A stretch of DNA of 64,000 nucleotides, taken from NCBI RefSeq assembly GCF_964204645.1, contig NW_027437435.1, positions 116,836-180,835 on the forward strand, given 5' to 3'. Of the stretch, positions 1,262-35,064 are shown in pieces (position 1 is the stretch's first letter; each line of letters begins with the position of its first letter). The translations under genes and the position numbers were made by a program. The notes beneath the pieces are model-generated. The model was given only the letters and a program-made list of their open reading frames with translations. It did not search any database and was not told where the DNA came from. The DNA comes from Tubulanus polymorphus. Lineage: Eukaryota; Animalia; Nemertea.

Positions 1262-1534
1262 TTATTCTATAGCTCTGTACATTGAATGTATATAGGCTAA
1301 AATAGAATCATTTTCTAGTATAAACATCGTATCCTCAACGTATTGTTCATTATTTGGATCAGTGTTCCATAATTCAATAAATTTCTTTCCTTTTGTTAAC
1401 TGTTCTGAATATAACTGTAAATATTCTAGTTTCAATTTATTCTCTAAATGTGTTCTAGTTTTATTGTGTCTTGCTTTTTGGGATTTATCTATATCGATAT
1501 TACATGTTGGGCAGTAGAACTTATTTGCTTCCAT
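1262..1534 (-). CDS. Small C2H2-type zinc-finger protein
   Basis: YCPTC-x9-RH-x5-H (YCPTCNIDIDKSQKARHNKTRTH), similar to the pPolB N-terminal finger YCQYCKKYIDTSNKTRHEKTANH. Confidence 0.7.
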   Translation of the reverse strand: MEANKFYCPTCNIDIDKSQKARHNKTRTHLENKLKLEYLQLYSEQLTKGKKFIELWNTDPNNEQYVEDTMFILENDSILAYIHSMYRAIE

Positions 1535-16800: not shown

Positions 16801-16905
16801 AATCGTCAGGAAAAGCACTTTTCGACGCGAAAACGTAGTTCAGCGCGAGAAAAGACGTTTTCTTATCGAATATTCCCCCTATCGGAAAAACGACAATGTC
16901 GATGC
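1883..16905 (+). repeat. 118-bp tandem satellite array, ~127 monomers, forward orientation
   Basis: Consensus AATATTCCCCCTATCGGAAAAACGACAATGTCGATGCGTAAAAGCGCTCAAATCGTCAGGAAAAGCACTTTTCGACGCGAAAACGTCGTTCAGCGCGAGAAAAGACGTTTTCGTATCG. Offsets between repeated spurious ORFs are multiples of 118. Confidence 0.98.
7306..14410 (+). repeat. Tandem duplication of a 3540-bp (30-monomer) higher-order unit
   Basis: Rare variants recur at +3540 (CGAATATGCC 7451/10991; CAGGTAAA ~7603/11143), as do ORF pairs 8265/11805, 8900/12440, 9327/12867 and 9962/13502. Confidence 0.92.
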
Positions 16906-18610
16906 GAAAAGTGCTTTTCTTGACGATTTGAGCGCTTTTACGCATCGACATTGTCGTTTTTCCGATAGGGGGAATATTCGATACGAAAACGTCTTTTCTC
17001 GCGCTGAGCGACGTTTTCGCGTCGAAAAGTGCTTTTCTTGACGATTTGAGCGCTTTTACGCATCGACATTGTCGTTTTTCCGATAGGGGGAATATTTGAT
17101 AAGAAAACGTCTTTTCTCGCGCTGAACTACGTTTTCGCGTCGAAAAGTGCTTTTCCTGACGATTTGAGCGCTTTTACGCATCGACATTGTCGTTTTACCG
17201 ATAGGGAGAATATTCGACACGAAAAGGTCTTTTCTCGCGCTAAACGACGTTTTCGCGTCGAAAAGTGCTTTTCCTGACGATTTGAACGCTTTTACGCATC
17301 GGCATTGTCGTTTTTACGATAGGGCGAATATTCGATACGAAAACGTCTTTTCTCGCGCTGAGCGACGTTTTCGCGTCGAAAAGTGCTTTTCCTGACGATT
17401 TGAGCGCTTTTACGCATCGACATTGTCGTTTTTCCGATAGGGGGAATATTCGATACGAAAACGTCTTTTCTCGCGCTGAACGACGTTTTCGCGTCGAAAA
17501 GTGCTTTTCCTGACGATTTGAGCGCTTTTACGCATCGACATTGTCGTTTTACCGATAGGGAGAATATTCGACACGAAAACGACTTTTCTCGCGCTGAGCG
17601 ACGTTTTCGCCTCGAAAAGTGCTTTTCCTGACGATTTGAGCGCTTTTACGCATCGGCATTGTCGTTTTTCCGATAGTGAGAATATTCGAAAAGAAAACGT
17701 CTTTTCTCGCGCTGAACGACGTTTTCGCGTCGAAAAGTGCTTTTCCAGACGATTTGAGCGCTTTTACGCATCGGCATTGTCGTTTTTCCGATAGGGGGAA
17801 TATTCGATACGAAAACGTCTTTTCTCGCGCCGAACGACGTTTTCGCGTCGAAAAGTGCTTTTCCTGACGATTTGAGCGCTTTTACTCATCGGCATTGTCG
17901 TTTTTCCGATAGGGGGAATATTCGATACGAAAACGTCTTTTCTCGCGCCGAACGACGTTTTCGCGTCGAAAAGTGCTTTTCCTGACGATTTGAGCGCTTT
18001 AACGCATCGACATTGTCGTTTTACCGATAGGGAGAATATTCGACACGAAAACGTCTTTTCTCGCGCTAAACGACGTTTTCGCGTCGAAAAGTGCTTTTCC
18101 TGACGATTTGAGCGCTTTTACGCATCGACATTGTCGTTTTTCCGATAGGGGGAATATTCGATACGAAAACGTCTTTTCTCGCGCTGAGCGACGTTTTCGC
18201 GTCGAAAAGTGCTTTTCCTGACGATTTGAGCGCTTTTACGCATCGACATTGTCGTTTTTCCGATAGGGGGAATATTCGATACGAAAACGTCTTTTCTCGC
18301 GCTAAACGACGTTTTCGCGTCGAAAAGTGCTTTTCCAGACGATTTGAGCGCTTTTACGCATCGGCATTGTCGTTTTTCCGATAGGGGGAATATTCGATAC
18401 GAAAACGTCTTTTCTCGCGCCGAACGAGGTTTTCGGGTCGAAAAGTGCTTTTCCTGACGATTTGAGCGCTTTTACGCATCGGCATTGTCGTTTTTCCGAT
18501 AGGGGGAATATTCGATACGAAAACGTCTTTTCTCGCGCCGAACGACGTTTTCGCGTCGAAAAGTGCTTTTCCTGACGATTTGAGCGCTTTTACGCATCGA
18601 CATTGTCGTT
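16906..18610 (-). repeat. 118-bp satellite, reverse orientation, ~14.5 monomers
   Basis: Reverse complement of the same monomer begins at ...GATGCG|AAAAGTGCTTTTC. Confidence 0.97.
18605..18610 (+). repeat. Left 6-bp target-site duplication GTCGTT
   Basis: GTCGTT|AGTAATT on the left and AATTACT|GTCGTT on the right. Removing the element and one copy restores an uninterrupted monomer. Confidence 0.95.
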
Positions 18611-18700
18611 AGTAATTAGAATATGTGGCTTTCATACCAGAGGACGAGAGGACGAGACACCACTCATCACCACAAGTAATTTTTTTTCCTAATAAATGGG
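18611..18700 (+). repeat. Left terminal inverted repeat (~90 bp), extending through the pPolB start codon
   Basis: Reverse complement of 34939-35058 apart from a ~30-bp duplication in the right copy. Confidence 0.95.
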
Positions 18701-21700
18701 GGAGAATGAACACCAACTAGAAAACAATAATGTCAATAAAAATCAATATTATTGTCAATATTGTAAAAAATACATCGATACATCTAATAAAACACGACAT
18801 GAAAAAACTGCAAATCATATAAAAAATGTAATAGATTTTGAAACTCCAGAAAATTCCAATGAAAGAAAAGAACGATTAGAAAATATGAATGTGAATGAAA
18901 TAAAATGTGAAGTTTGTGATGAATTTATAACAAAAAGGAATTATAATAGACATCTCGAAACAGAAAAATACCATCAAAATTTGAGAAATAATGTTTTAGG
19001 AATAGATTATTTTGATGATAAACCTCAACAAGTAAAAGAATCAACTTCAAAAACTAAATCCATTTCAAATAAACCTTACATGGAAAATGTTAGAAATTAT
19101 ATTGATTCACTAGAAATAAAAGATACAATTGAAATCTTAGAAACATTACATAGTAAAATTGGTCCTGCAGCTATTATATTTAGATTTTTTAAAGGTACAA
19201 CAATAGAAGATTATAGTAAATTTAATGAAATAATAGAAAAAATACTAGATTTGATAACAGATGTTGAATATCCAAAAATTAGTATCTCTGGGAAAGTAAG
19301 TTTTATAAAGTCAGAAGAAAAAATGAATTATAATATTCAAACACTCTCTGAAGAAATAATTTCAAAAACACAAATAAAAGAGAAGTTAGAAAAAATATTA
19401 AATGAATTTAAACGTCATATTGAAGAAAGATATTTTGAGGGTTCTGGCTTAACATTGAATGAAATTATATATTTAGATTTAAATGTTTATAATACAAAAA
19501 GGAATAAAACATCAAAAAGTAATAAAATGTTTAAAAATGATTCAAACACTTCAACAGAAAAGGATATGAAAGCATCAAGTTATATCAAATTACCGTTTAC
19601 AACAAAAGCAGTAATAAATATTCAAAATGAAGATAATAAATGTTTTCTATGGTCAATTATTAGTTGTTTACACCAAACAGAAGATATGACGCATAGTTTT
19701 AGAATAACAAATTACCAGAAATATGAAACATTATATAAAATTGATCAATATCCAGTAACTATCCAGTAACTAAAATGATTCCTAAAATAGAAAAAATTAA
19801 TAATTTAAAAATAAATGTATTCGAATTAATGCAATTACCAAAGACAAAAGGTGAAAATATTAAAGATTATACATTGGAAGCTTTATATTTAACAGAATAT
19901 TATGATGATGAAAATGCTATAGATTTGTTATATTATAAAAAAGATGAAAATGAACATTATATGTGGTAAAACAAATTGATTTATTCTTTAGAACGGAAAG
20001 TGATCATCATCGTAAAATTTATCTATGTAGAAAATGTTTATCTAAATTTATGACTGAGAATACATTATTAAAACATAAAGAATTATGTGATAATAAAGAT
20101 TTTTGTAAATTAATAATGCCAACAGAAAAAGATTATAAATTGAAATTTACTAATCATAAATTTAAGAATATTGTTCCATTTGTTCCATTTGTAATTTATG
20201 GGGATTTTGAATCGTTGAATAAAGAATTAACTGATCAAGATAGAAAAGAAATATATAACAAAAAGCAATTATTAAAATCAATGGATAAAGGAAATGAATT
20301 AAATGAAGACGCAACACAAGACCCACCAATTATAAATACAATTTAAAAAGTTCATCAAAGAGCTGCTGCTTATGGAATTTACATCAAATCAAATTATCCC
20401 GAATTATATGAAAGTCAATATATTTCTTTTAGAGGTGAAAATGTAGTTAATGATTTTTGTGATAAAATGATTGAATTAGAAAGTGATTTTACAAAATTAT
20501 TAAACAAAAATAAAAGAAAAGTTATGACAAAAGAAGATGAAATTGATTTTAATTATGCAACTCATTGTTGTTATTGTGAAAAACGTTTTTATTCATTTGA
20601 TAAAAGAGTTAGAGATCATGATCATTTGAATTCAAAATATCGTGGAGCTTCTCATGAAGATTGCAATTTACAAGCTAAAAAAGTAAATTTCGTACCAATA
20701 TTATTTCATAATTTATCAGGATATGATACCCATCTATTTATAAAACAATTATCGGGAAAATTGGGCGCAATTAATCAAGAAATAGAAGAATATAATGCTA
20801 TGAATGAAGCAAATGTAAGAAAATATGATTTTAAACTATTAGCTAAAACATCTGAAAATTATATTTCATTTCAATTTGGTTGCATTAGATTTTTAGATTC
20901 TTATAGATTTCTAGCAAGTTCATTAGATAATTTATCAAAAAGTTTAGTTGATAATGATTTTGTTATAACTCGATATTATTATCCAAATGAACAAGATTTT
21001 AAATTATTGAGATATAAAGGCGCAATTCCTTACTCATTTTATAAAACACACGATGATTTTAATGTAACAGAATTATTAAAAGATCAATTTTATGATCAAT
21101 TAAAAGAGGAGTATGTGAAAGACGAAGTGTTTAATAGAACATTAAATATTTGGAACCATTTTAAGATGAAAAATCATGGGGAATTAGTTGATTTATATTT
21201 AAAATCAGATGTTATGATATTGGCTGACATATTTGAAAAGTTTAGAGAAGTTAATCTAAACCATTTTAATGTTGACCCTTGTTATTGTTATTCAAGTCCT
21301 GGTTTAACCTGGCAATGTGGTTTAAAATATACAAATGTAGAATTAGATTTATTAAATGAACCAGATATGGTTTTATTATTTGAAAAATCAATTAGAGGTG
21401 GAATTAGTGGTGTTATGGGAGATAGGTATTTTAAAGCAAATGATGAATATAAATTATTATATATTGACGCCAATAATTTATATGGTTGGGCAATGATGCA
21501 ACCTCAACCATATACAAATTTTATATTAACAGAAGTTGAAAATGATGATAAAACTAATTGGGAAAGCGCAATTATGAGTTTAGAAGATGAAGCACCAATT
21601 GGTTATTTCTTTGTAGTTGATTTAGAATATCCTGATAACATAAAGTTTAAAACAAGAAACTTACCTTATTGCCCAGAACATTTAACTGTAGATGATAGTT

Positions 21701-23781
21701 ATTTAAGTGAATACCAGAAGAAAATAAAACCGAAAGATCATGTTTTTACAGAAAAATTAATACTTACTCAAAATAATAAATACAATTATATTGTTCATTA
21801 TAGAATGTTAAAATTTTATCTAAAACAAGGAATGAAATTAAAGAAAGTACATAGATATATTGAATTTAATCAATCGAAGTGGTTAGAAAAATATATAGAT
21901 TTCAATACTCAACAGAGAACAATATCAAAAACAGATTTTGAAAAAGATTTCTTCAAATTAATGAATAATAGTTTTTATGGTAAAACATGTGAAAATATTA
22001 GAAATAGAAATGATATTGAATTAGTAAATAATTCTGAACGATTGAGACACCTACAATCAAGTCCTAGACATTTAGGAAATAAAAGGTTTGAGGATTATTT
22101 GACCGCGGTAAAATTAAAAAGAACGTCAATGAAATTTAATAAACCTATTTTCATTGGTTCAACAGTTTTAGAAATATCAAAATTATTAATGTATAATTTT
22201 TATTATAATGTTTTACAACCATTGTTTGGGGAAAAACATATAGAAATTCTGTACTTCGATTCTGTAACGGCCGACACCCCAATATTATTAAAATGTAATA
22301 ATAAAATATTGGTAAGAAGAATTTCAGAAATAATTCCAAAACAAAATGAATGTTATATTTCATATGGAGAAAAAGAATTAATACAAATAAATGGATTAAT
22401 GGATGTTTGGACAAGAAATGGATGGAAAAAATTAAAGAATATTATTAGGCATAAAACAAATAAGAAAATCTATAGAGTTAGAACTAAATTAGGATTCGTA
22501 GATGTTACTGAAGACCATAGTTTAATTAAACGAAATGGTGATGAAATAAAACCAACTGATATAAAAATTGGAGATGAATTATTACATAAAAGATTTTTCC
22601 AAAGAATGAATCTTAAGTCATTTGATGAAATAATTGATAATATTTATAATATAGAACCTGAAACATTAGAAGAAAAAGAATATTTTATCAAAGGATTTTT
22701 CATGGGTGACGGTTCAGCAGGTGTGTATAAATATGTTTGGGGTAATAAATATTGTTGGTATTTATGCAATCAAGACTTAAAATTATTAGAAAGAATTAAG
22801 AAATTTTGCGAAGAAGTTTATTCACATAAAACATTTAGAATCATGGATGTTATGAAATCATCAGCAGTTTATAGAATACTTGTAAATAATCCTAAAGATT
22901 TTGCTATAGAATATAATGATGAATTCTATATTCATGCAATAGTGAAAAGTAATACTTCAACTAAAGAAAAAATAGTACCAGATTATATATTAAATTCAGA
23001 ATATAATCTTAGAAAATGGTTCTTCATTGGGTTCTACGCAGTCGATGGTACTAAAAAATTTACAAAGGATAAAAAGATAACCTTTACACAGAAAGGAAAA
23101 GTTGCGATATCAGGGTTAAATATATTATGTAATTCATTAGGTTTCAATATGAATATTGGATTGATTAAATCTAAACCAAATTGCTTTAATCTAAGCCACA
23201 CAGAAAAAGATTTAACTGAAGAAGTTAAAGATTTATTTGAAATATATAACCCAACTGACTATGTTTATGATTTATCAACAGATGATGGAACATTCAATTC
23301 TGGGTTCCCATTAATCCAAAAAAATACTGATGCGTACATACTAAAAATGAAGACAAATGACATAACGAAAGACTTAAAAACATTAAAACATCATTTTGAT
23401 TTTAGCAATTATGCTAAAGATCATGAACTATTTAGCAATGATAATAAAAAGATTCCTGGTAAATTTAAAGATGAATTAGGGGGTGATGAAATGATTGAAT
23501 TTGTTGGGATAAGAAGTAAAATGTATAGTTACAGAACAAAAGATCACGAAGCTAAAAAGTTAAAAGGAATAACAAAACATGTGGTTGATAAACATATAGA
23601 ATTTCAAGATTATATAAAGTGTTTATATAAATCAATTGTAATGAAACACAAGATGAATTGTTTAAGATCAGAAGATCATGAGATGTACATTAATGAAGTT
23701 GAAAAAACTAGTTTGAATCCATTTGATGATAAAAGGCATATTTCAGATGATGGTATAAAAACATTACCTTATGGTTATTAA
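18696..23781 (+). pseudogene. polB: Protein-primed family B DNA polymerase polyprotein (zinc fingers, putative terminal protein, OTU-like protease, exonuclease with EndoVII-like insert, polymerase with intein), disrupted
   Basis: Motifs IYGDFES (ExoI), FHNLSGYD (ExoII), YLKSDV (ExoIII), YIDANNLYG (A), KLMNNSFYGK (B), YFD|TD (C), GKFKDE, KMY and KLKGI. Split into four ORFs by an 11-bp duplication (19749-19770), a 1-bp deletion (~19967) and an in-frame TAA (20344-20346). Confidence 0.95.
22261..23325 (+). mobile_element. Intein (355 aa) with LAGLIDADG homing endonuclease, in pPolB motif C
   Basis: LYFD|SVTADTPI...IQKN|TDA; block B VTEDH; two LAGLIDADG-like motifs IKGFFMGDG and FIGFYAVDG; block F VYDLST. 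Confidence 0.95.
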
Positions 23782-25079
23782 AACATAAAATCAATATCAT
23801 CATACTCGAAATCACTATTGGCTTCTTCATTTTCATTTAATTGTTCAGGTTCTTCTTCCATTCCATTTTTCTCATTTAAATAAAGTTCTATCTTGTTCCA
23901 CATTTCATCTCGCTCTCTTTGTTTCTTTTTGTTTGTTAATTCATCAAATGGAATTATAATATCTAGGTTTAAATAATTTACAATCTTATTTAAAAAGAAT
24001 TCATAATTTATTGAATCTGTTATTCTATTTTCCAAATGATACATTAATATTTGTTTAAATATTTTTTTTATATTTTCCATATCTTCTTCTGTTAATTTAG
24101 GTTTTTCATAATAATCGTTAAATAATAAATATAAATACATTTTCTTTTGTTTTGTGTTAAATGTTGGTGGAATAATTGTTTTTATAATATCTTTTTTAGT
24201 TATTTCACCATTTTTATTTTCTATTATTTTCATTTTTTCAAGCCATTGCATATATTCTGGTGTATGATCTTCTATAGAAAATATTTTAAAAATTTCATCT
24301 AGATAATTTAATTTTGGTTCTATGAGAAAATCTCTAGTTTTTTCTTCACCCCATAAATTCTTTTGCCATCCACATTCAACACAAAATAACACAGTACCTT
24401 CTTGCCTTAAGGTCGCATAACTACATTGTGGGCATTTTTGTTTATAATTTCTTGGTAATAGATCTTCATTAAGCTCTTGGTATTTTCTTACGTTTTCTTT
24501 ATGTTTTATTGTTCTATTATGTAGATTTGAATTACTTGTTGTAATAATCAATTTACAATATTTACAATAATATGTTTTTCTTGTTAATTCATTATATTGT
24601 TTTTCTAACTTTTCAACTGTTTCTTTATTATCTGGTAACGTTTTCTCATATTTTATTTTTTCTAATAAATTATTTTTTCTTTCATTGAATTCAGTTTCAA
24701 ATTTATTAGAAATTTTATCTATATGTGCTTTACGAAATTGATGATTCTCCCAATCTTCTATATTTTCAGGGTTATATTTTACTTGACAAGGCTCACAGAA
24801 ATAATCTTTTATATTATCCTTATCATAGAATAAGAAAGGTCTTTTCCAAATAACTTCAGGTTCAACTTCAGCAGAATTACTATCAACATTAGCTGTTGCA
24901 CCATTAATTCTACACTTCTCTGAATGTTTTTTAACATAATTTCTTGAGAATAATTTATTACATTTTGGACAGTTTATTTTAGGGGGTTTATAATTTTCAT
25001 CATGTTTTTTCATATGTCGAGCCATATTACTTTTTCTTAGAAGTTCACCACAAATTTCGCATGCTATCTTCTCATCCAT
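23778..25079 (-). CDS. Multi-zinc-finger protein with a C-terminal VLTF3 (poxvirus A2)-like late transcription factor region
   Basis: About four C2H2/C2HC fingers, then a CPQC-x13-CVECG zinc ribbon and SINYEFFLNKI...IPFDELTNKKKQRERDEMWNKI, resembling the recalled VLTF3 C-terminal pattern (Y.Y.L.K....L......P.LK...K....D..W..I). Confidence 0.7.
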   Translation of the reverse strand: MDEKIACEICGELLRKSNMARHMKKHDENYKPPKINCPKCNKLFSRNYVKKHSEKCRINGATANVDSNSAEVEPEVIWKRPFLFYDKDNIKDYFCEPCQVKYNPENIEDWENHQFRKAHIDKISNKFETEFNERKNNLLEKIKYEKTLPDNKETVEKLEKQYNELTRKTYYCKYCKLIITTSNSNLHNRTIKHKENVRKYQELNEDLLPRNYKQKCPQCSYATLRQEGTVLFCVECGWQKNLWGEEKTRDFLIEPKLNYLDEIFKIFSIEDHTPEYMQWLEKMKIIENKNGEITKKDIIKTIIPPTFNTKQKKMYLYLLFNDYYEKPKLTEEDMENIKKIFKQILMYHLENRITDSINYEFFLNKIVNYLNLDIIIPFDELTNKKKQRERDEMWNKIELYLNEKNGMEEEPEQLNENEEANSDFEYDDIDFMF

Positions 25080-25147
25080 TTATTAAGGAATAATTTTATT
25101 AAAATTAATTTTTAGTGATGAGCGGTAATTTTTTTATGTTATAAATA

Positions 25148-25909
25148 ATGGTAGAATTAAAAGAATACAGAATATTTATTGATTCTAGAAAACTTACAAA
25201 TTATAAATCTCATAATTTACTAGTACAATTAGATAGAGAATTCAAGAATTGTGTAGATTTAAAATTAGTTAATATAAGTTTATGTAATTCTTTTTACAAT
25301 GTATCGGATAAGTCTATTGAACATAGAGTCTTTTTAGTTTTTAATAAAAATAAAAATGAATGGGTCTATATATATTTAAAACCAGGGTTATATAATTTAG
25401 ATACATTAGCACAAGAAATTAATAGAAAAGCCTGGCACAAATTAGGTAGTAGTTCTGGGTTTAGTATTAGATTTTTAAAAAGTGAGAGTTCTGATAGAAT
25501 AAAGATAAGGTTGTCTAATAGTGAAAAACATAAACTTATGGTAAAAAAACCTATAGCTAAACTGTTAGGAATTCTTCCAGATAGATCTTTTACAAATATT
25601 GATGCTACTACACCAAACTTAATACCTTACACACATTTTTATATTTATTGCAATTTAATCGATCCTACAAAAACATTCGAAGCAACTAAAGATATAACTT
25701 GTAATTCTGGTTTACTAAACATTTTACCATTGAAGAATGTTAAAGAATTTGGAACGCAAATAAATTATAATTTAACAGAATGTGATTTCAAACCATGCAT
25801 TCCTAGTTTTAATAATTTTAGATTAGAAATTAGAAATCATAATGGATACTTAATTGATTTAAATAATTTCCCTGTAATTTATGAATTAGTTATAAGATGT
25901 AAAGAGTAA
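25148..25909 (+). CDS. Minor capsid protein (penton, single jelly roll)
   Basis: Penton-like pattern: IFIDSR, SFYNV, PGLYN, FYIYCNLI, LNILP, FRLEIRNHNGYLIDLN; beta-rich. Confidence 0.8.
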   Translation: MVELKEYRIFIDSRKLTNYKSHNLLVQLDREFKNCVDLKLVNISLCNSFYNVSDKSIEHRVFLVFNKNKNEWVYIYLKPGLYNLDTLAQEINRKAWHKLGSSSGFSIRFLKSESSDRIKIRLSNSEKHKLMVKKPIAKLLGILPDRSFTNIDATTPNLIPYTHFYIYCNLIDPTKTFEATKDITCNSGLLNILPLKNVKEFGTQINYNLTECDFKPCIPSFNNFRLEIRNHNGYLIDLNNFPVIYELVIRCKE

Positions 25910-25926
25910 TTTTTTTCACTATATAA

Positions 25927-26268
25927 ATGAATATAACTGTTGGACCGAGTATATGTTTTGGGTTTGATTTTAAACATGGTAAAGAAATGAGAATTAAACT
26001 AAATGATGTAATTACTGATATAAAAAGTAAATCATTTAACAATGCATCAATGATTGATAAAGAAAAGTATAATATAGAAAAAGTAATTGATTTAATTAAA
26101 TCACCTTTAGAATATTATGAATTAAATGAAGATGGAATTATTGAAGATATTAAAAACATATTAACCAAAATATATGATAATCATAAAACTAGTAATGAAA
26201 TAAATGTTGAATTAATCATAAATAAGTTAACTAAATATTTTGATGATAGTAATTTTTTTGATAAATAA
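25927..26268 (+). CDS. Hypothetical protein
   Basis: 113-aa ORF with TAAATG start, in the collinear gene block. Confidence 0.75.
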   Translation: MNITVGPSICFGFDFKHGKEMRIKLNDVITDIKSKSFNNASMIDKEKYNIEKVIDLIKSPLEYYELNEDGIIEDIKNILTKIYDNHKTSNEINVELIINKLTKYFDDSNFFDK

Positions 26269-26490
26269 ATGAGTGATAATAAGTGGATAATAACTGGATT
26301 ATATAATGGCGCATTACTATCAGTTGGAACTGTTGGTTATTCAATGGTATTAAAAAAAGTATTCAAAATGGGAAGTGTTAATGTTGATAGATTTGATATA
26401 AATGATATTCTAAAATTAACATTAGCAGTTACTTTATCTAATTTAACTATTGATTACTTGGAAAAACAAAAATATATTCCTCCCATATAA
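26269..26490 (+). CDS. Small hydrophobic protein, putative virion membrane protein
   Basis: 73 aa, two moderately hydrophobic segments, TAAATG start abutting the upstream stop. Confidence 0.75.
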   Translation: MSDNKWIITGLYNGALLSVGTVGYSMVLKKVFKMGSVNVDRFDINDILKLTLAVTLSNLTIDYLEKQKYIPPI

Positions 26491-26514
26491 ATACATAATT
26501 TTTTTGTTAAATAA

Positions 26515-26937
26515 ATGGCTTCTGCAATTATAACTATTATAGGATCAGCAATTGTTAACGCTTTAGCATTTACTGGTGGTGGTTATTTATTTAAACATAT
26601 TGATAAAAATAGTTCATTAGGAGAACAAAGAAGACATAACTTAGCGTTAGAGAAATACAATAAAGCTGCAGAAGAATATAGAGAAAAGAGACAAAACTAT
26701 ATGGATTATATTAACAAAGAATTATATGATCAGAAGATTTCACACAGAGATTTTCAATCAGTTGATGATGCAATGAGTTTATATAACGCAGTAACAAATA
26801 AAGAAAAATTACATCTATACAAACCTAAATTATCAGATTATTATACCCCAAGTAAAGAACAACAGAAATATGAAATAATATGGATTTTAGGTGGAACTGT
26901 TATTGTTATATTTGTTGCTTATAAATTTACTAATTAG
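26515..26937 (+). CDS. Putative membrane protein (N- and C-terminal hydrophobic helices, central helical region)
   Basis: MASAIITIIGSAIVNALAFTGGGYLF...RHNLALEK...IIWILGGTVIVIFVAY; TAAATG start. Confidence 0.8.
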   Translation: MASAIITIIGSAIVNALAFTGGGYLFKHIDKNSSLGEQRRHNLALEKYNKAAEEYREKRQNYMDYINKELYDQKISHRDFQSVDDAMSLYNAVTNKEKLHLYKPKLSDYYTPSKEQQKYEIIWILGGTVIVIFVAYKFTN

Positions 26938-26956
26938 TAATTTTTATTCTAAATAA

Positions 26957-27391
26957 ATGGAAGATAAAGTTGATAGTATTGATATTATTCCTCATGATAT
27001 AAATAAAACTAAATTAAAAACATATTTAGAAAAACAAATATTAGAATTTGAAAGTGACTTAAAGATAAAAAAGAAAAAATATTTAAAATCTAAAATTATA
27101 GATTATTTGATTATAAGTGGTTCGGTTACAATTAGTTCTGTAATAACATTTCTAGCAATATTCAGTCCATTAACACCTTTAGCTATATCAATTGGTGTAT
27201 TAGGATTAAGTTCAAGTGTTTTAACTGGTATAAGTTCAAAATTAAATATAAAAAGTAATAAAGAAAAAATTAAAACTAATATAAAAGAAATTAATAAATT
27301 AAAGAATACACTAGATTATATAATAAGTTTAAATGGTCATATAACAGTTGAAGAACAAGATAAATTATTAAAAGAATTAGTTAATTATTAA
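26957..27391 (+). CDS. Two-TM-helix protein with flanking coiled coils
   Basis: Hydrophobic hairpin at aa ~51-95; TAAATG start. Confidence 0.8.
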   Translation: MEDKVDSIDIIPHDINKTKLKTYLEKQILEFESDLKIKKKKYLKSKIIDYLIISGSVTISSVITFLAIFSPLTPLAISIGVLGLSSSVLTGISSKLNIKSNKEKIKTNIKEINKLKNTLDYIISLNGHITVEEQDKLLKELVNY

Positions 27392-27407
27392 TTTTTTAAT
27401 TATATAA

Positions 27408-28709
27408 ATGGGGTTTCCAAAAGCTTTCCAATATAATAAATCAATTAAATATAATATTCCGGCAATAGATTTTAAGAAAAATATTACATATAAAAATATA
27501 GTTTTAAATTCATTAACTAATTTAGAAATTTATGTTAATGAATCACAGTTTTTTATTTCTAAAATGGAAAATATATTTAATACATATGAAGTTACTTTTA
27601 CTCGAGATGAATATCATATATATAAAGTAAAATCTAATATGAAATATTGGCAGAATCAATTAAATTTTGCTGTTTATTGTGCAACAACAGGATGTGGAAT
27701 TAGTTGGAATGATCATTTAAATAACTTAGATAAAAATTTGAAGTATTCTGATTTAAAATTAATTCACACAATATTTAGATTTCACACATATTTTCAAATC
27801 AGAATAATATTAAATGAATTAGAATGTCCTTTACCCGGGTCTAAATATTTTAAAGAATTGGATAATAATATTAATATATCCAAGTTTTATAAAATATGTA
27901 ATGAATTTAATATAAATATTAATTCCGATTTCAGAGCGCATGGTAAATTGCAAGGTGTTGGTGAACAGTAGGAAATAAAAAGAATTGATTATATGCATAG
28001 AATTGGAGCTTATCATAATTATAAAATTGATAATAATAATGGTTGGGTTAATTTCATTTTAGAAAATGGTGAAGGTTTTACAAAATCAGTTATACAAAGA
28101 ATAAATCAATCTATTAGAATTTATTTGATATGTATTTTAGGCGCTCAAGTTGAAACAAGATCCCCAATAATTGGAAATGATAACACTTCATTCGATGCGC
28201 AGAAACAGTTTAAAGTTTTATTTGAAGATTCAATTCATAATTATAAAAATAGATCGATTCCAGAAAACATTATAAGATATCAAAATTATTTAGATAAATC
28301 TCATGTAAGACTAAATTATTGTATAGGCCCTAATCTATTAATTATTTCTAATGATTTAGTATTAAAGATGGGAAACATAATTGGTTATAATAATCTAATT
28401 AAAACTGCAACAATAAATAATTCATTTGGGTTAAATGATATAAATAAAAAGATTATCACTGCTCCAAAATTAATGGAAGGTGAAAAAAATAAAAAACACA
28501 TTCAATCAACTGAAACTAAAACTAAGAATATTAAATTGGATAATGATTCCAAAATAAAAGATTACAATACATCAGAAAATATAAAAACTGATAAAATTCA
28601 ACATGATATAATTAAAACTGATAATGATAATAAATCACATGAAAATACTAAATTAGCTATAACTTGTATAGGAATTGTAATCGGAGGAATATTATATTTT
28701 AAATTTTAA
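27408..28709 (+). pseudogene. Polinton protein of unknown function with C-terminal TM anchor, interrupted by one in-frame TAG (27969-27971)
   Basis: ORFs 27408-27971 and 27993-28709 are in the same frame and only the first has a TAAATG start. Motifs QLNFAVYCATTGCG and ILGAQVETRS. Confidence 0.75.
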
Positions 28710-28726
28710 TTTTTTTTATTATATAA

Positions 28727-30166
28727 ATGGAAGTAGAAGGTGTAGAAGATATTGGAATGGATCCTTTTGATGAACCTGGTATAACTGATGAACAACCACC
28801 TGATTTTGATGAAACAAGTTTCAGTAACGAAAATGAAACAGCATATAATTCTAATTTAGCAAGACCTGATACCAATGAATATGTTAATAAAGCACGTTCA
28901 AGATTGGATATTGAAAATGAAAATCCAGATTTAATGAAAAAAGAACTAGAATATGACGAATTAACAGATAAATTCAAACCAATATTAGAAAAATCTGGAT
29001 TCAATATAACAAATAAAGGTGTGAATTATTTAGTAAAAGATTTGAAATATTTAAATGGTGATTATTATTGGCATTTGAAAGATGACTATTATTTTAAGAT
29101 TTCTTCTAATAAAAGTCTTGATAAAATAATAACAAAATCAACTTTTATTAAATTAGAACAATCTAAAATTAAAAAAATCAATAATGATGTTATAACTGAT
29201 GTTACAGAAGAAGAGATAAATCAAAATAGAAGAGAATTTAATCGAAGAAATAATGATTTTTTGAAGATAATTAATGAAAATTTAGAACCAGAAACAATTC
29301 CTAAAGAAGATAAAACTTCCAAAACTAGTAGACCTAATTCAAGAGAAGTTCAAACTGAAAAACTTTTACCGAAGGGATTACTTGATGCAACAGATCAAGA
29401 ATTAGAAGATTTAGATATATTTTCTGATAAAGCAATTAGAGAAATTATTAGTATAAGACTTGCATCTGATAAAATTGCACATAATAAAAGTATAAGAGAT
29501 TTTAAAATTAGAACTTTAGAAAAAGAATTAACTGATAAAAATAAAGAAATAGAACAATTAAAGTCTGATTTAGATCATCAAGTAATTGATGAAATAGAAT
29601 ATAGGCAAAAAGAATTACGTTTAGAAAAAGAAAAAGATGATTTAGAATATAACATAGAATTACAAAAAGAAGAAATTAAATTATTGTTAAAATCATATGA
29701 TTATAATATTAATAGATTAAAAGTTATTTTTAAAGATTTGTTGATTAAACCAAATTCTGAAATATCACTAAAAGACAGAATAAGATTATTATTTAAATTA
29801 GAAGGAATAACAATTCTTTCAATTCTAACAGCTGTAACTATGTTATTCACAACAATAGGTTTAGCAATATCAAATGCTTTGAAATCTACTCCTACTCCCA
29901 ATAAACCAGATAAACCTCCAGGTAATAATTCTATACAAGATAAAGTTAAGGATGGTTTAAAGAAATTAGCAAAATATTTATGGGAACTATCTAAAAAATC
30001 TGCTGCAGCATTGCCAGGAGTTATTGCTTCAATTGTTGGTTTTATATTGAAATCTGCAGGAAACATTATTAACTTTGCTGCTGAACATATTATTTTATTT
30101 TTAATTACGGTTGTAAGTGCTATTATTTTTGGTTTAGTAAATATGATATCAAAAAATATCAAGTAA
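28727..30166 (+). CDS. Acidic/coiled-coil protein with C-terminal hydrophobic helices (putative membrane-active or virion protein)
   Basis: 479 aa; DETSF motif, coiled coil at aa ~255-330, EGITILSILTAVTMLFTTIGLAI and ALPGVIASIVGFIL. Confidence 0.8.
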   Translation: MEVEGVEDIGMDPFDEPGITDEQPPDFDETSFSNENETAYNSNLARPDTNEYVNKARSRLDIENENPDLMKKELEYDELTDKFKPILEKSGFNITNKGVNYLVKDLKYLNGDYYWHLKDDYYFKISSNKSLDKIITKSTFIKLEQSKIKKINNDVITDVTEEEINQNRREFNRRNNDFLKIINENLEPETIPKEDKTSKTSRPNSREVQTEKLLPKGLLDATDQELEDLDIFSDKAIREIISIRLASDKIAHNKSIRDFKIRTLEKELTDKNKEIEQLKSDLDHQVIDEIEYRQKELRLEKEKDDLEYNIELQKEEIKLLLKSYDYNINRLKVIFKDLLIKPNSEISLKDRIRLLFKLEGITILSILTAVTMLFTTIGLAISNALKSTPTPNKPDKPPGNNSIQDKVKDGLKKLAKYLWELSKKSAAALPGVIASIVGFILKSAGNIINFAAEHIILFLITVVSAIIFGLVNMISKNIK

Positions 30167-30207
30167 ACCATGATAAAAAATAAATAATTAATTTTTTTGT
30201 TAAATAA

Positions 30208-31455
30208 ATGAGTGGGAGTTATATAAGCCCTTCCAAGATTTCTAGAATATCTAATGCTATTAAAGCAGAAAGATCACATCATATAATTACTCATAACCCT
30301 TCAAATATTAATCCCGATGAAACTTTATATGTTAGAATTCCTAGATTAACACAAAATACTTTTTATGTTCCAAATAGTATTTATTTATCAGCTGATATAA
30401 AAGTAATCGGTAATAACAATAATTATGTTGTTGATGATGTTGGAAGATATTTGATTAAAAAGTTAACAATAAAGATTGGTCCAGAAACAGTTTTCTCATT
30501 AGATGATTATAATTTATTTATGCATTATAAAGATTTATGGTTAACTAAAGAAAATAGAAATAATATGATATTTCAGGGTATTCAATCAGAAAACCAAAAT
30601 AAATTAAGATCAGAAGCTAATAGCGCAATATTAACAAATGATGTAGATAAATTGATAAAAAGTATATATGGAAGCAAATATAAAATTCCATTAGACTTTG
30701 AATTGATAAATAATAATGCACCTTTATATAAATACGCAATTCAAGAAGATATTATATTTGAGATAACATTTGCTCCTGTAAATGAAATTGTATTATCTAG
30801 CGTTAATAAAGATATGAGTTATAAATTATCGAATATATGTTTAGAATATGATACAGTAACTGATGAAAATATTTCAAGTATAATTCAAACTAAATATAAT
30901 CAAGGGTTTTCATTATTATATGATTATATTGATAAATTTAAAACTGTAACTATTAATGCAAATGATGAAATAATTAATGAGAATATTAACTTTCCTAGAA
31001 GATCTATTAAAGGTATATTAATATTTTTTACTATTGCAACATATTCTAATGGTGCAATAAATGTTGATAATTATTATAATCCTGAAATAACAAAAGTAGA
31101 AATAACTATCGAAGGAATAGCGAATAAAATATTTTGTCAAGGAATGAGAATGATTGATCAATGGCCAGAAATTAAAAAACATTTTATGAATGAAAAAGTA
31201 AAATCATTTGAAAATTGTAATATTAATCAAATTGATTATTATACCGGTAATAAATATGCATTATGGTTAGATTTTAGAACAACAGAGGATAATTCATTAC
31301 ATGGTTCTGGGAAAAAACTACAAAATACAAAAGATGGAATACAATTATTCATGACAAAGAATAAAGGAATCAAAAATTTTAAAATGCATATTTATATTAT
31401 ATCTGACGCGCAATTAAATATTGTAAATTCACAATTAGATAGTATTCAATATTAG
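30208..31455 (+). CDS. Major capsid protein (double jelly roll)
   Basis: 415 aa, beta-rich, next to integrase and ATPase; NPSNINPDETLYVRIP, NICLEYD, RSIKGILIFF and LWLDFR patterns as recalled for polintovirus MCPs. Confidence 0.8.
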   Translation: MSGSYISPSKISRISNAIKAERSHHIITHNPSNINPDETLYVRIPRLTQNTFYVPNSIYLSADIKVIGNNNNYVVDDVGRYLIKKLTIKIGPETVFSLDDYNLFMHYKDLWLTKENRNNMIFQGIQSENQNKLRSEANSAILTNDVDKLIKSIYGSKYKIPLDFELINNNAPLYKYAIQEDIIFEITFAPVNEIVLSSVNKDMSYKLSNICLEYDTVTDENISSIIQTKYNQGFSLLYDYIDKFKTVTINANDEIINENINFPRRSIKGILIFFTIATYSNGAINVDNYYNPEITKVEITIEGIANKIFCQGMRMIDQWPEIKKHFMNEKVKSFENCNINQIDYYTGNKYALWLDFRTTEDNSLHGSGKKLQNTKDGIQLFMTKNKGIKNFKMHIYIISDAQLNIVNSQLDSIQY

Positions 31456-31485
31456 AAATATAAAGTTAAAATTAAGGATATATAA

Positions 31486-32613
31486 ATGAGTGGTAAAAAA
31501 ACTCCTAATACTAAAGAACAATATTTAAGAAATTTATATTACAACCCTGAGAGTTCGGTTGCTTATTCTTCTACTAAAAATATATGGCGTAAAGTAAAAC
31601 AAGATAAATTAGATAAGATAATCCCACAAAATTTAGTTAAATATAAAGATAAAAATGAATTTATGTTAGAACAACCAACATATACAACACATAAAAAAAT
31701 TGTTAGAAAATATAAAACTCGTAAAACTATGGTAAGTTATGTAGATCAACAGTGGCAAGGAGATTTAATTGATATGAAAAATCTTAAAAAAGATTATAAT
31801 GATTATTGGTGGATATTGAATATAATTGATATTTTTAGTCGTTATGTATGGAGCTTCCCACTTTATAGAAAAGATGCTGCACAAACATCACATGTTTTAA
31901 GAAAATTTCTTTCAGGTGGTAAACTAAAACCAGAAAAAATACAATTTGATGATGGAAAAGAATTTGATAATTCATTAGTTCATGGACTTTTAGATTTTCA
32001 TAATATTAAATATTTTTCAACAAAATCAGATAAAAAAGCAGCAGTTGTTGAACGATTTAATAGAACATTAAGAACAAGAATGTGGAAATATTTTACAGCA
32101 AATAATACTTTGAAATGGATTGATATTTTACCAAAATTGATAGAAGGATATAATAATTCTTATCATTCTTCTATTGGAATGAAACCTATTAATGCTAGAA
32201 AACCTGAAAATGCTGAAATTGTTTGGAATAATTTATATGGAGCATTTCTTATAGATGATTTTGGTGAATCTAAATTTAAAGTTGGTCAAAATGTTAGAAT
32301 TTCTAAGTATAAAAAGATATTTGATAAAGGATACGATCGAAATTTTACTAGGGAAATATATAAAATAAAAAAGGTAATAACAACAAAACCATATGTCTAT
32401 AAATTAGAAGATTTAGATGGTGAAGAAGTTGATGGCTACTTTTACGAAGAAGAATTAAGTTTAACTACTGAAAATCTAGAACAAGAATATAAAATTGAAA
32501 AAGTACTAAAAACAAAAACTGTTAAAAGAAAAAAATATTCTTTAGTAAAATGGGTTGGATGGCCAGATAAATTTAATGAATGGATATTATCAAGTAAAAT
32601 TAAAAATATATAA
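31486..32613 (+). CDS. int: Retroviral-like (rve) DDE integrase with C-terminal chromodomain
   Basis: WQGDLID, IDIFSRY, QFDDGKEF, VVERFNRTL and YNNSYHSSIGMKP; chromodomain YKIEKVL...LVKWVGWPDKFNEWI. Reading frame intact. Confidence 0.95.
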   Translation: MSGKKTPNTKEQYLRNLYYNPESSVAYSSTKNIWRKVKQDKLDKIIPQNLVKYKDKNEFMLEQPTYTTHKKIVRKYKTRKTMVSYVDQQWQGDLIDMKNLKKDYNDYWWILNIIDIFSRYVWSFPLYRKDAAQTSHVLRKFLSGGKLKPEKIQFDDGKEFDNSLVHGLLDFHNIKYFSTKSDKKAAVVERFNRTLRTRMWKYFTANNTLKWIDILPKLIEGYNNSYHSSIGMKPINARKPENAEIVWNNLYGAFLIDDFGESKFKVGQNVRISKYKKIFDKGYDRNFTREIYKIKKVITTKPYVYKLEDLDGEEVDGYFYEEELSLTTENLEQEYKIEKVLKTKTVKRKKYSLVKWVGWPDKFNEWILSSKIKNI

Positions 32614-33222
32614 ATGAATAAGGAATTATTTATATTTGAGTCTCATAATATGTTAATTTCTGGCGTAACAAATTGTGGAAAAACTTATTTTATATTAAAT
32701 TTATTAGAAACTGTTTATGAAAACTATTTTGATAATATAGTATTATTTTGTCCAACATATGAATTTAATCAAACTTATGATAGAAATATTACTAGGAATA
32801 ATAAATTTATTATATTAGATCCTAAAACAGTAAAAGAAAATTTAGATAATTGTATTAAAATAGCAATTGATATTTATAAAGGATCTAATACATTATTTAT
32901 TATTGATGATTGCGCAAATTTACATGATTCTAAAATTAGAGAAAGTGAGTTATGTTATTTAGCTTTCTCTGGGAGACATTTTGGGATAACAACTTGGGTT
33001 TTAAATCAAAAATATAATTCAATTGTTAAAGACTTTAGAGAAAACATTAGATTTCTAGTTTTATTCTACAATAAAGATAGAAAATCAATGAAAAATGCAC
33101 TTGAGGAAAATGATATTATTCCACATGATTTACATAATGAATATATGGATAAGTTGAAAAATATTAAAAGATCAAAATTACTATTTAGATTACAACACCC
33201 ATTTAAATATGAATTTATTTAA
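32614..33222 (+). CDS. A32/FtsK-HerA-like genome packaging ATPase
   Basis: Walker A GVTNCGKT, Walker B LFIIDD, SGRHFG, LNQ, FREN. Confidence 0.92.
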   Translation: MNKELFIFESHNMLISGVTNCGKTYFILNLLETVYENYFDNIVLFCPTYEFNQTYDRNITRNNKFIILDPKTVKENLDNCIKIAIDIYKGSNTLFIIDDCANLHDSKIRESELCYLAFSGRHFGITTWVLNQKYNSIVKDFRENIRFLVLFYNKDRKSMKNALEENDIIPHDLHNEYMDKLKNIKRSKLLFRLQHPFKYEFI

Positions 33223-33223
33223 A

Positions 33224-33486
33224 TTCAACTAGCTTGTTAATCTAATTGAATTCTAGTTGAATTCTAGTTATTGGTAGTTGTAACAAAAATCAACTAGATT
33301 TAACAATATTTTAACTAGCTTGTCAATCTAGTCTAATTCTAGTTACATTCTAGTTGAATTCTAGTTGTTAGTAGTTGAAACAAAAATCAACTAGATTTAA
33401 CAAGAAATAAACAAAAACAACAATATTTCAACTAGCTTGTTAATCTAGTTGAATTCTAGTTACATTCTAGTTGAATTCTAGTTGCA
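33224..33486. repeat. Intergenic CTAG-rich compound repeat (three units of ~85-115 bp built from 11-bp ATTCTAGTTGA subunits)
   Basis: AACTAGCTTGT starts three units (~33227, ~33313, ~33430); CAAAAATCAACTAGATTTAACAA occurs twice. Confidence 0.85.
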
Positions 33487-33517
33487 ACATCACACAATTA
33501 ATTTATTTGTTTTATAA

Positions 33518-34123
33518 ATGGGAGGTGAAAAGAAAATAAAATCTAAAAATGGTGATGTTCCAATTGAAAAAACTTTAGATGATTTAGGAATAACAGAAAC
33601 AAAATTAACTCCAGATGATGGTGCTTTAAATATTGTTACAACAAATAATAATTATGAATATTATCTTTATTGTAAACATCAATTAGAAATATTAATAGCA
33701 TCTGGAAAATGTAAAAATTTTATCGGTAAAAATTTAACTTATAATGAATTAGATACAATGAAATCAGATGAAATTATTAGATTATTTAAGATTTATGAAG
33801 CCGCGAGAACAGCTAGAATTAATGACGCGATATCAGAAAATGTAGTAAAAGGTTATAGTAAATTATGTAATTATATACTACCAATTGAAGATGAAAATAG
33901 ATTATATTCCGATTTAAAAAATGATTATTTAGTTATGACTGAATTAAATAAATGGATTGGATATTTATCATTTCAATTAGGAGGATTTATGACATTATTA
34001 TCAACTGGTGTTATAACATTTTCAAATATTGAAAGTAAAAATATTTCTATAATAAATGAGCGAAGTGAAAGAAGTGAAGGAATTAACTGTGAAGAAAAAA
34101 CCGAGAACTCAGAAACAAATTGA
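33518..34123 (+). CDS. Hypothetical protein with hydrophobic C-terminal segment
   Basis: 201-aa ORF, TAAATG start. Confidence 0.8.
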   Translation: MGGEKKIKSKNGDVPIEKTLDDLGITETKLTPDDGALNIVTTNNNYEYYLYCKHQLEILIASGKCKNFIGKNLTYNELDTMKSDEIIRLFKIYEAARTARINDAISENVVKGYSKLCNYILPIEDENRLYSDLKNDYLVMTELNKWIGYLSFQLGGFMTLLSTGVITFSNIESKNISIINERSERSEGINCEEKTENSETN

Positions 34124-34424
34124 ATGGTCTCGACAATTAGGAATTAAATCACAAGAATATAAAAAAGCTGTAAAAGAAAAAATAAGTAATAAAAATGTTA
34201 ATAAAAATGGTGAAAATATTGTTATTTCTACTCCTTCTAATAGTAGAATATTTGATAAATATTTATATTTTACAGTTGGATTTGTAATTGTATTCATTTT
34301 GATTGGGTGTAATTGGTATAAGAAATCAAATAAAATTCATGATATTAGTAATTCTGAACCAACTGCTATCAAAAATGAAAGTACTTCTGAAATTCCAAAA
34401 TTGATAATAAAAAAAATGGATTAA
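34056..34424 (+). CDS. Basic single-TM protein
   Basis: 122 aa; KKKPRTQKQIEW; TM segment YLYFTVGFVIVFILIGC; TAAATG start overlapping the upstream gene. Confidence 0.75.
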   Translation: MSEVKEVKELTVKKKPRTQKQIEWSRQLGIKSQEYKKAVKEKISNKNVNKNGENIVISTPSNSRIFDKYLYFTVGFVIVFILIGCNWYKKSNKIHDISNSEPTAIKNESTSEIPKLIIKKMD

Positions 34425-34616
34425 TATTTTAGAAAAAAAGCAAAAAAAAATAATTTTTTTTAATTAATTGAATATTAATTGAATATCTCACTACTTTTGT
34501 CTATCACTGTGTGGTGCTGTTTATGGCACCATCTATGTGGAGCAATTAAATTGTCCAGATAAGTCATTTCGGATTCTAGATATTCATTATTTTTATTAAT
34601 TTATTTTTTTTAAAAT

Positions 34617-34943
34617 TTAATCAACAATTTCTAAATCATGATGACCGTCTTCATTTTTCCCATGATATATTATTTTAAATCCTACTAAATCTTTCAATTC
34701 CTCCGTACTCAATGAAACCCATTTATCGGGTAAAAACACTTTAAATTCTCGTGATGTACTAACATTACAGTAGCTTAAATTAGCTGATACTTTCTCTCCA
34801 TATTTAGTTTTTATCTTTTCTAATTTCAATATTTTATGTTCAATTTCTTTTGTAACATCAACTAACTTTTTTATTTCAAATTGTTTTTTTGCTGGTTTTA
34901 TTCTGTTATTTATTGTTGCTAAGAATGCTTTTCTATCTCCCAT
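34617..34943 (-). CDS. Small beta-rich protein, possible OB-fold ssDNA-binding protein
   Basis: TKYG...KVFLP pattern; starts inside the right TIR with the same upstream sequence as polB. The function is inference. Confidence 0.65.
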   Translation of the reverse strand: MGDRKAFLATINNRIKPAKKQFEIKKLVDVTKEIEHKILKLEKIKTKYGEKVSANLSYCNVSTSREFKVFLPDKWVSLSTEELKDLVGFKIIYHGKNEDGHHDLEIVD

Positions 34944-35058
34944 TTATTAGGAAAAAAAATTACTTGTGGTGATGAGTAGGAAAAAAAAATTACTTGTGGT
35001 GATGAGTGGTGTCTCGTCCTCTCGTCCTCTGGTATGAAAGCCACATATTCTAATTACT
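34939..35058 (-). repeat. Right terminal inverted repeat with internal ~30-bp tandem duplication
   Basis: TAGGAAAAAAAA(A)TTACTTGTGGTGATGAG occurs twice (34948-34976 and 34977-35006). Confidence 0.95.
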
Positions 35059-35064
35059 GTCGTT
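35059..35064 (+). repeat. Right 6-bp target-site duplication GTCGTT
   Basis: Matches 18605-18610. Confidence 0.95.

Follow-up and report, generated by a model that had tools for sequence, protein, structure and literature searches.

The question raised by this locus is why nearly every gene of one mobile element begins with the same six letters, and what machinery would read them. The element occupies positions 18611-35058 of the stretch of Tubulanus polymorphus DNA analysed here, a piece of 64,000 nucleotides from contig NW_027437435.1 that is referred to below as the window. Composition profile, repeats and gene content together mark this interval, an island of 24% GC, as a complete mobile element of 16.4 kb. 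It is an integrated Maverick/Polinton-type virus; a protein-primed PolB, an rve integrase, terminal inverted repeats (TIRs) with a 6-bp duplication, and a double jelly-roll capsid protein together with an A32 ATPase are the defining features of such elements that are found in it. The original prediction held that TAAATG overlaps almost every start codon of the element, usually behind a tract of T, and offered a poxvirus-like interpretation of this arrangement. We find that the motif forms part of a compact cassette which, from its sequence and position, is very probably the promoter, and the predicted transcription start site, of each gene.

The TAAATG starts that had been listed, at 18696, 25079 (-), 25927, 26269, 26515, 26957, 27408, 28727, 30208, 31486, 32614, 33518, 34056 and 34943 (-), are all present in the sequence. 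It is clear that the motif is near-universal, as claimed, and far beyond chance: 14/15 intact gene starts carry it, compared to 43/643 ATGs in the element when both strands are counted (Fisher p 5.5e-17). The exception is the putative penton gene, which begins with TATAAATAATG at 25148, as had been noted. A mechanical list of open reading frames (ORFs) that begin at their first ATG and reach at least 60 aa within the element gives the same picture, with 14/23 beginning at TAAATG; the nine others are the penton gene, the fragments at 19775, 20050, 20467 and 27993, and the antisense frames at 22151, 27831, 29701 and 34109, all four on the minus strand. The fragments created by lesions had been proposed as an internal control, their starts being without TAAATG. 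This is true of 19775, 20467 and 27993, whereas 19963 is not an ATG start at all; it is a GTG inside ORF 19775-19969, and the fragment start overlooked earlier is 20050, which also lacks TAAATG. Since a relative of the element (L003, below) has a single 442-aa gene in place of the two pieces around 27993, this position is confirmed as a lesion-made start. Within the element the motif is thus an aid to gene calling that tells real starts from lesion-made or antisense ORFs. As a separate observation, the 156-aa ORF at 29701-30171 (-), antisense to the gene for a 479-aa protein, has no cassette and is probably no gene.

The sequence context of these starts is narrowly defined. All 14 TAAATG starts have the form WATAAATG, and the positions from -4 to -1 relative to the ATG are A, T, A and A, with T at -3 in 14/15 starts; the base after the ATG is always a purine (G in 9/15, A in 6/15). 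Further upstream T is found at -14 in 15/15 starts and at -13 in 13/15. The 64-kb window has 10 occurrences of the bipartite pattern TAATTTTT-N5-9-TAAAT, 10/10 of them at gene starts; the mean of dinucleotide shuffles is 0.46 occurrences and 0/100 shuffles reach 10. Likewise, a run of at least five T placed 4-9 nt before TAAATG is seen at 9/14 start TAAATGs and at 1/29 others (p 3e-5), and the spacer between T-run and TAAAT is 5, 6 or 7 nt. The claim that most starts have an upstream T-tract therefore holds for ten of them, and an uninterrupted T-run is missing in five: the sequence ahead of 25079 (-), 31486, 32614 and 34056 is rich in A, and at 33518 the T-tract is interrupted. A division into two fixed promoter classes by gene function, T-run against A-rich, was considered and rejected, as the penton gene of L003 is A-rich upstream and its orthologue in the window has a T-run. 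Several intergenic gaps are, as had been noticed, reduced to the cassette, to the point that the stop codon of the upstream gene is the TAA of the box.

The arrangement is conserved in relatives of the element. Through an alignment-based scan we obtained 80 loci on metagenome contigs whose capsid gene is related (L001-L080). In L001-L013, where capsid identity is 51-76% and GC content 20-44%, TAAATG marks the start of 48/54 ORFs with 100 aa or more, the background being 135/2135 ATGs (enrichment at ORF starts p 7e-55); in L014-L080, with capsid identity of 30-58% and several partial genes, the figure is 19/421. Orthologues keep the T-run, the spacer and TAAATG despite changes in the remaining upstream sequence, in GC content and in gene order. 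At loci of 36-44% GC the box is shortened to TTTTC and TAAATG is kept, and since the motif persists from 20% to 44% GC it is not an effect of composition. The most conserved upstream bases in the relatives are T at -12 (46/51) and at -13 (37/51). In L010 and L013 there are divergent gene pairs with about 22-30 nt between their ATGs, where the T-run of one gene is the A-run of the other. Furthermore, capsid N-termini align from residue 2-3 among the relatives, so that the ATG within TAAATG must be the true start codon.

A careful maximum-likelihood capsid tree, calculated from 60 full-length rows after 21 partial rows were excluded, places the window and L001-L013 in one clade (support 99/97). 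The motif, treated as a label on this tree, requires two changes, the second being the pair L077/L078. These two loci (capsid identity 32-34%, GC 39%) have starts of the form ATAATAAATG in 4/5 and 1/1 ORFs respectively, through either an independent gain or loss in the intervening lineages. Sister lineages without TAAATG (L037, L055, L014, L052, L079) show a different pattern, TTTTC(T/C)-N7-10-TATA(T/G)A(G), located 3-6 nt before many ATGs; the TATA-like boxes are found at 8/28 ORF starts compared to 14/894 other ATGs. It may be that every lineage has a bipartite promoter close to the start in a version of its own.

The published poxvirus promoters resemble the cassette closely. The vaccinia late promoter has a core with T residues, a spacer of 5-7 bp, and TAAAT followed by G or A, and late transcription begins at the TAAAT motif, which overlaps the start codon (PMC5294985). 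A 2025 review describes a conserved T at the 10th nucleotide upstream of TAAAT with less conserved Ts around it, and intermediate promoters consisting of TAAA with A-rich upstream sequence (PMC11980589). The gene table of the salmon gill poxvirus, the deepest chordopoxvirus according to the title of that paper, flags TAAATG on many genes (PMC4542343). Each of these traits has its counterpart here: TAAATG overlaps the start codon and is followed by G or A, a T-rich core lies 5-7 nt upstream, a minority of genes are A-rich upstream in the manner of intermediate promoters, and the whole promoter fits within about 25 nt. The 10th nucleotide before TAAAT corresponds to -13, about which the T-run of the element and its relatives is centred. 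Thus both parts of the late promoter, TAAAT(G/A) at the start and a T-core with its spacer, are found in the element. There are also differences. The core consists of an uninterrupted short run of T preceded by a fixed TAA (TAATTTTTTT) rather than a loose 20-bp region, and the cassette sits in a 16-kb Maverick/Polinton in which poxvirus transcription genes are lacking. Its surroundings are not a poxvirus genome, and Pfam searches of 71 proteins (19 ORF translations from the window and 52 proteins of relatives) gave no match to poxvirus polymerase or VLTF families. Of the poxvirus-like interpretation, then, the motif stands as real, linked to starts, conserved and laid out as published, whereas the polymerase that reads it is something we infer.

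We propose that each gene has a cassette of 20-25 nt, made up of TAATTTTTTT, a spacer of 5-7 nt and WATAAATG over the start codon, which would act as its promoter. By analogy, there is about an even chance that a helper virus brings the RNA polymerase, of poxvirus type, which reads the cassettes. Transcription would then begin within TAAAT and give leaderless or poly(A)-headed mRNAs like those of poxviruses, and integrated copies would be silent as long as the cell is not infected by a virus with that late machinery, as for mavirus with CroV. The T-run, which often holds the stop codon of the upstream gene, may also help to end the upstream transcript. A narrower form of this proposal, that the clade consists of endogenous poxvirus virophages, silent in chromosomes, where a chromodomain integrase would here have targeted satellite heterochromatin, and woken only by the late machinery of a poxvirus-like virus as yet undescribed in these hosts, is put forward tentatively on the same analogy. 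To judge from sequence, the element and its relatives encode no recognisable reader of their own: RNA polymerase, TBP, TFIIB and VLTF gave no Pfam match at E up to 0.01 in the 71 proteins, and TBP, TFIIB and poxvirus polymerase subunits gave none even at E up to 5 in 15 unexplained proteins.

Several observations weigh against a helper with poxvirus-type machinery. Inside ORFs TAAATG is not under-represented (22 observed, 18 expected), so that TAAATG alone is presumably insufficient, or stray initiation is tolerated. Poxvirus or giant-virus genes were not seen by Pfam in the window or in 83 related loci, and the only family match with "pox" in its name, Poxvirus A32, is generic to such viruses. 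The element also has a nuclear phase, as seen from its chromodomain integrase, its 6-bp duplication in satellite DNA and the diverged copies in the DNA of the organism. In view of the TATA-like boxes of the sister lineages, the promoter style may be a family trait read by host TBP and RNA polymerase II (Pol II) or by an element factor, and the two U1-type zinc-finger proteins that the element encodes could be the readers.

The last three points speak for a different reader, which is possible but rather doubtful: the cassette would be a promoter used in the nucleus, where host TBP, or an element factor of the zinc-finger kind, would bind WATAAAT and recruit host Pol II, and its likeness to poxvirus late promoters would reflect shared ancestry or a convergence of TATA-like initiators. 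A further point in its favour is that TBP targets vaccinia intermediate and late promoter elements, according to the title of reference 56 in PMC5294985. However, the 71 proteins include zero TBP or TFIIB family matches, and the geometry is difficult to reconcile with Pol II. Metazoan Pol II starts about 25-30 nt downstream of a TATA box, and a TATA abutting the ATG would place the start inside the ORF, yet conservation of the capsid N-termini begins at residue 2-3. The distance from T-run to TAAAT is about 10 nt instead of about 30 nt, and two divergent cassettes can be packed within 22-30 nt. As for an element factor, no homologue of the 433-aa zinc-finger protein could be detected (none of similar length; best Atlas score 0.76, under the useful range) and so it is not a conserved partner of the conserved motif. 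A sequence search of the PDB with this protein gave C2H2 fingers only, and its single-sequence AF2 (AlphaFold2) model has a pLDDT of 39.5 and is unusable.

Returning to the promoter itself, the cassette is tied to gene starts and not to gene ends. Both TIRs contain it, in front of terminal genes that have no neighbour upstream, and it serves both genes of the divergent pair 25079 (-)/25148 (+); neither the ends of convergent genes (23778-23781 and 34424-34617) nor the four lesion-made fragment starts have it. This pattern makes it improbable that the cassette acts mainly at the 3' end of the upstream gene, as a TTTTTNT terminator or AATAAA polyadenylation signal, with TAAATG secondary. Such a role would fit the fact that the TAA of the TAATTTTTT box is the upstream stop codon in at least three genes (25909, 27391, 28709), that the stop codon at 26937 directly precedes a TAATTTTTT box, that 8/14 TAAATG starts can be read as AATAAA-TG, and that an A9/T8 palindrome lies between convergent genes (34437-34462). 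It would also fit the scarcity of TTTTTNT on the sense strand of ORFs, where 8 are observed and 23.5 expected from codon shuffles. A-runs in ORFs are, however, depleted almost equally (84 observed, 136 expected); the TTTTTNT depletion is hence unspecific, may be a general avoidance of homopolymers, and was rejected as specific evidence for a terminator. Moreover, the invariant part of the cassette is TAAATG at the ATG and not the T-run.

A signal in translation is more unlikely still, whether as the start-codon context of the host or as stop-start (UAAAUG) reinitiation on polycistronic RNAs. The motif does overlap the start codon, +4 is always a purine, and in two cases (26266-26268 and 32611-32613) the upstream gene ends in frame on this TAA; but these are only 2/14. 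Eukaryotic start contexts prefer a purine at -3, where 14/15 starts here have T. A T-run at a fixed distance 10 nt upstream is foreign to any known start context, and the motif is kept in relatives of 20% to 44% GC and missing in others. Chance or AT-rich composition can practically be dismissed: TAAATG is not in excess across the 64-kb window as a whole (51 observed, 46 expected from shuffles), but the position-specific tests contradict it (p 5.5e-17; 0/100 shuffles; p 7e-55 in relatives that include loci of 36-44% GC).

If the cassette is a promoter, the closest functional parallel to a helper-dependent reader comes from virophages, where a match between virophage gene promoters and the late promoter of the helper has been taken as a sign that the late machinery of the helper is used (PMC10945749). 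In Cafeteria, CroV reactivated only those endogenous elements that had the CroV late motif, and the motif of mavirus/EMALE04, which equals the CroV late promoter, decides which giant virus reactivates it (PMC10945749). The element shares with mavirus/EMALE04 the form of a small integrating virus with an rve integrase, a protein-primed PolB and one short motif by every ATG. It differs in that the motif is of poxvirus type and not TCTA, and the capsid is of a Maverick family with members on megabase eukaryote contigs.

Yeast cytoplasmic linear plasmids are a second parallel. Those of the pGKL1/2 pair also have a capping enzyme and a promoter box, ATNTGA, neither of which was found in the element. 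Like the element they combine a protein-primed PolB and TIRs with one short promoter per gene, and their mRNAs, made by a poxvirus-like polymerase, have non-templated 5' poly(A) leaders (PMC6831550, PMC6211774). Unlike the element, in which Pfam found no such gene, they encode their own RNA polymerase (PMC6211774).

Polinton-like viruses (PLVs) have been described in the occlusion bodies of entomopoxviruses and were suggested to be the first poxvirus hyperparasites (Barth et al. 2024, PMC11296320). AHEV_PLV1/2, CBEV_PLV1 and Ca_PLV1 are likewise small polinton-like viruses, one of them integrated in an insect genome (PMC11296320). Compared by description only, they differ from the element in being about 12 kb long, with highly divergent capsids and no detectable rve integrase (PMC11296320). 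A term search of the main text of PMC11296320 returned no mention of "promoter", "TAAAT" or "motif", and a full-text literature search found no published description of such a motif in Polinton/Maverick elements.

Promoter matching is a signature that links virophages to giant-virus helpers, and a Maverick clade with poxvirus-type late promoters would carry this logic into the poxvirus world. If a helper does read the cassette, the motif would be a flag, readable from sequence, for helper-dependent Mavericks, and TAAATG-using viruses yet to be discovered would be predicted in the hosts of the clade. Should the virophage proposal be correct, integrated copies would amount to an inducible antiviral defence, as mavirus is for Cafeteria, and the presence of the clade in metagenomes at 20-44% GC would indicate that large DNA viruses which use TAAATG have a diversity hidden so far. 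If instead host or element factors read the cassette, the architecture of the poxvirus late promoter would exist outside poxviruses, and this would be relevant to the proposal that large DNA viruses descend from polinton-like ancestors.

Table 1. Coordinates of the element, its genes and its putative promoter cassettes, in positions of the window.
Feature	Positions	Strand	Basis or remark
Maverick/Polinton-type element	18611..35058		about 24% GC, within a 118-bp satellite array
Left target-site duplication copy, 6 bp, GTCGTT	18605..18610		sequence reading; one GTCGTT per satellite unit there
Right target-site duplication copy, 6 bp, GTCGTT	35059..35064		sequence reading
Left TIR, including the putative promoter cassette and ATG of the first gene	18611..18703	+	arm complementarity
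Right TIR, with a 30-nt duplication of the T-run part at 34948-35007	34936..35058	-	repeat analysis
Protein-primed PolB, frame interrupted	18696..23781	+	PF03175; pieces 18696-19769, 19775-19969, 20050-20346, 20467-23781
Putative penton (minor capsid) protein	25148..25909	+	label from position and size only
Major capsid protein, predicted double jelly-roll fold, 415 aa	30208..31455	+	925 homologues, AF2 model, Foldseek
rve integrase with C-terminal chromodomain	31486..32613	+	PF00665, PF00385
A32-type packaging ATPase	32614..33222	+	PF04665 E 1.3e-12
PolB (first gene) cassette, TAATTTTTTTT-CCTAA-TAAATG	18677..18698	+	sequence reading, box search
Start of 433-aa zinc-finger gene, AATAAATG	25077..25101	-	upstream A/T-rich, no long T-run
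Putative penton cassette, TAATTTTTTT-ATGTTA-TAAATAATG	25126..25150	+	sequence reading, box search
Cassette of 113-aa gene	25907..25929	+	TAA of box is stop codon of penton gene
Cassette of 73-aa gene, within upstream ORF	26250..26271	+	TAA of TAAATG is stop codon of upstream ORF
Cassette of 140-aa membrane-protein gene	26496..26517	+	sequence reading, box search
Cassette of 144-aa gene, TAATTTTTATT	26938..26959	+	sequence reading, box search
Cassette of gene split into 27408-27971 and 27993-28709	27389..27410	+	L003 version 442 aa, unsplit
Cassette of 479-aa coiled-coil/membrane protein gene	28707..28729	+	sequence reading, box search
Cassette of major capsid protein gene	30189..30210	+	sequence reading, box search
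Start of integrase gene, TATAAATG	31464..31488	+	A-rich upstream, GTTAAAATTAAGG
Start of ATPase gene, TATAAATG	32592..32616	+	A-rich upstream inside integrase coding end; TAA is integrase stop
Start of 201-aa gene, TATAAATG	33496..33520	+	interrupted T-tract, TAATTTATTTGTTT
Start of 122-aa gene, AATAAATG, within upstream ORF	34034..34058	+	A-rich upstream
Cassette of 108-aa terminal gene, in right TIR	34941..34962	-	sequence reading, box search

The assignment of the element to the Maverick/Polinton type is based on the following details. The outer TIR arms, 18611-18687 and 34982-35058, are 100% complementary over 77 nt, and the inner arms, 18662-18703 and 34936-34977, are 98% complementary; the left TIR thus reaches 93 nt. 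TIRs were also sought in the contigs of L001, L003 and L005 and none were found, from which we take these contigs to be incomplete. The AF2 model of the 415-aa protein has a pLDDT of 86.6 and is matched by Foldseek to the capsid proteins of PBCV-1, SGIV, EhV-201 and mavirus (best E 4e-16, TM 0.61); on this model the protein is a double jelly-roll major capsid protein. PolB is recognised in ORF 20467-23781 (PF03175, E 2.1e-19) and has a U1-type zinc finger (zf-U1) at its N-terminus. The integrase match to PF00665 has E 1e-8 and 35.8 bits compared to a cut-off of 32.6, and the chromodomain match to PF00385, with E 2e-4, is under its own cut-off; the rve-chromodomain architecture is also found in L001, L003 and L005. 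For the putative penton protein there is a weak match to DUF5901 (E 0.004) and an L003 orthologue that is 42% identical. No protease-family match was obtained among the 19 ORF translations of the window when an adenovirus-type maturation protease was sought with Pfam, and tRNA and Rfam scans over the element gave no match.

Some features of these genes were noted in passing. The same PolB ORF contains an intein-like insert with a LAGLIDADG-type homing endonuclease region at 22318-22909; its matches to Intein_splicing (E 7.5e-5) and LAGLIDADG_3 (E 0.0017) are both under the Pfam cut-offs. A chromodomain integrase together with insertion in satellite DNA fits chromodomain-guided targeting of heterochromatin. 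A deoxynucleoside kinase (dNK, PF01712) is encoded near one end of L003 (10340-10981 (-), E 1.7e-31) and L007 (2895-3377 (-), E 8e-31); in L003 the gene lies behind a T-run/TAAATG cassette, and it is missing from the copy in the window.

DNA of the source organism covers 30/30 bins of the element. Since its contig pieces are about 90% identical to the element, diverged copies exist in this organism; in the DNA of a second organism pieces of the element are found at 90-99% identity. No RNA run is among those listed as containing the element, and one sequencing run, which is RNA only by guess, has a single 29-nt piece matching it. Outside the metagenome contigs, relatives of the capsid gene were few: single-protein and alignment scans of a viral contig set found no relative, and a scan of a genome contig set found three distant ones, in misbinned metagenome-assembled genomes. 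Some capsid homologues are on megabase-size eukaryote contigs, one of which is named from a bivalve. A cluster of homologues labelled as partial hypothetical proteins of Bartonella isolates comes, we infer, from foreign contigs.

Two non-coding regions of the element may be mentioned. The first, 33223-33517, is 295 nt long, lies ahead of the gene at 33518 and contains three blocks of repeats of the 11-nt TCTAGTTGAAT as well as the repeated words AACTAGCTTGT and CAACTAGATTTAACAA; possible roles are in regulation, as an origin or in packaging. The second, 34425-34616, is the gap between convergent genes and contains an A9-TAA-T8 palindrome (34441-34462) and a GC-richer stretch, with no tRNA or Rfam match.

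No clear host gene was found in the window. The left flank (30% GC) has an ORF at 22-798 (-) of 258 aa with EMEDEPT repeats and no Pfam match, and one at 1262-1534 (-) of 90 aa with a U1-type zinc finger like that of the element (E 0.008). Their starts are AATAAAATG and TTAAAAATG, not TAAATG, and they may belong to another mobile element. A hairpin at 1615-1882, with 129-nt arms that are 91% complementary and a loop of 10 nt, abuts the first unit of the 118-bp satellite. The satellite, of about 45% GC, extends over 1883-18610 and 35058-64000 in about 387 units with 95% matches. At about 16905-16915 the units change orientation, and the stretch that contains the element is therefore inverted with respect to the array on its left. 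In DNA run X6 the bin at the satellite edge, 18500-19033, is about 100-900x deeper than the other bins of the element.

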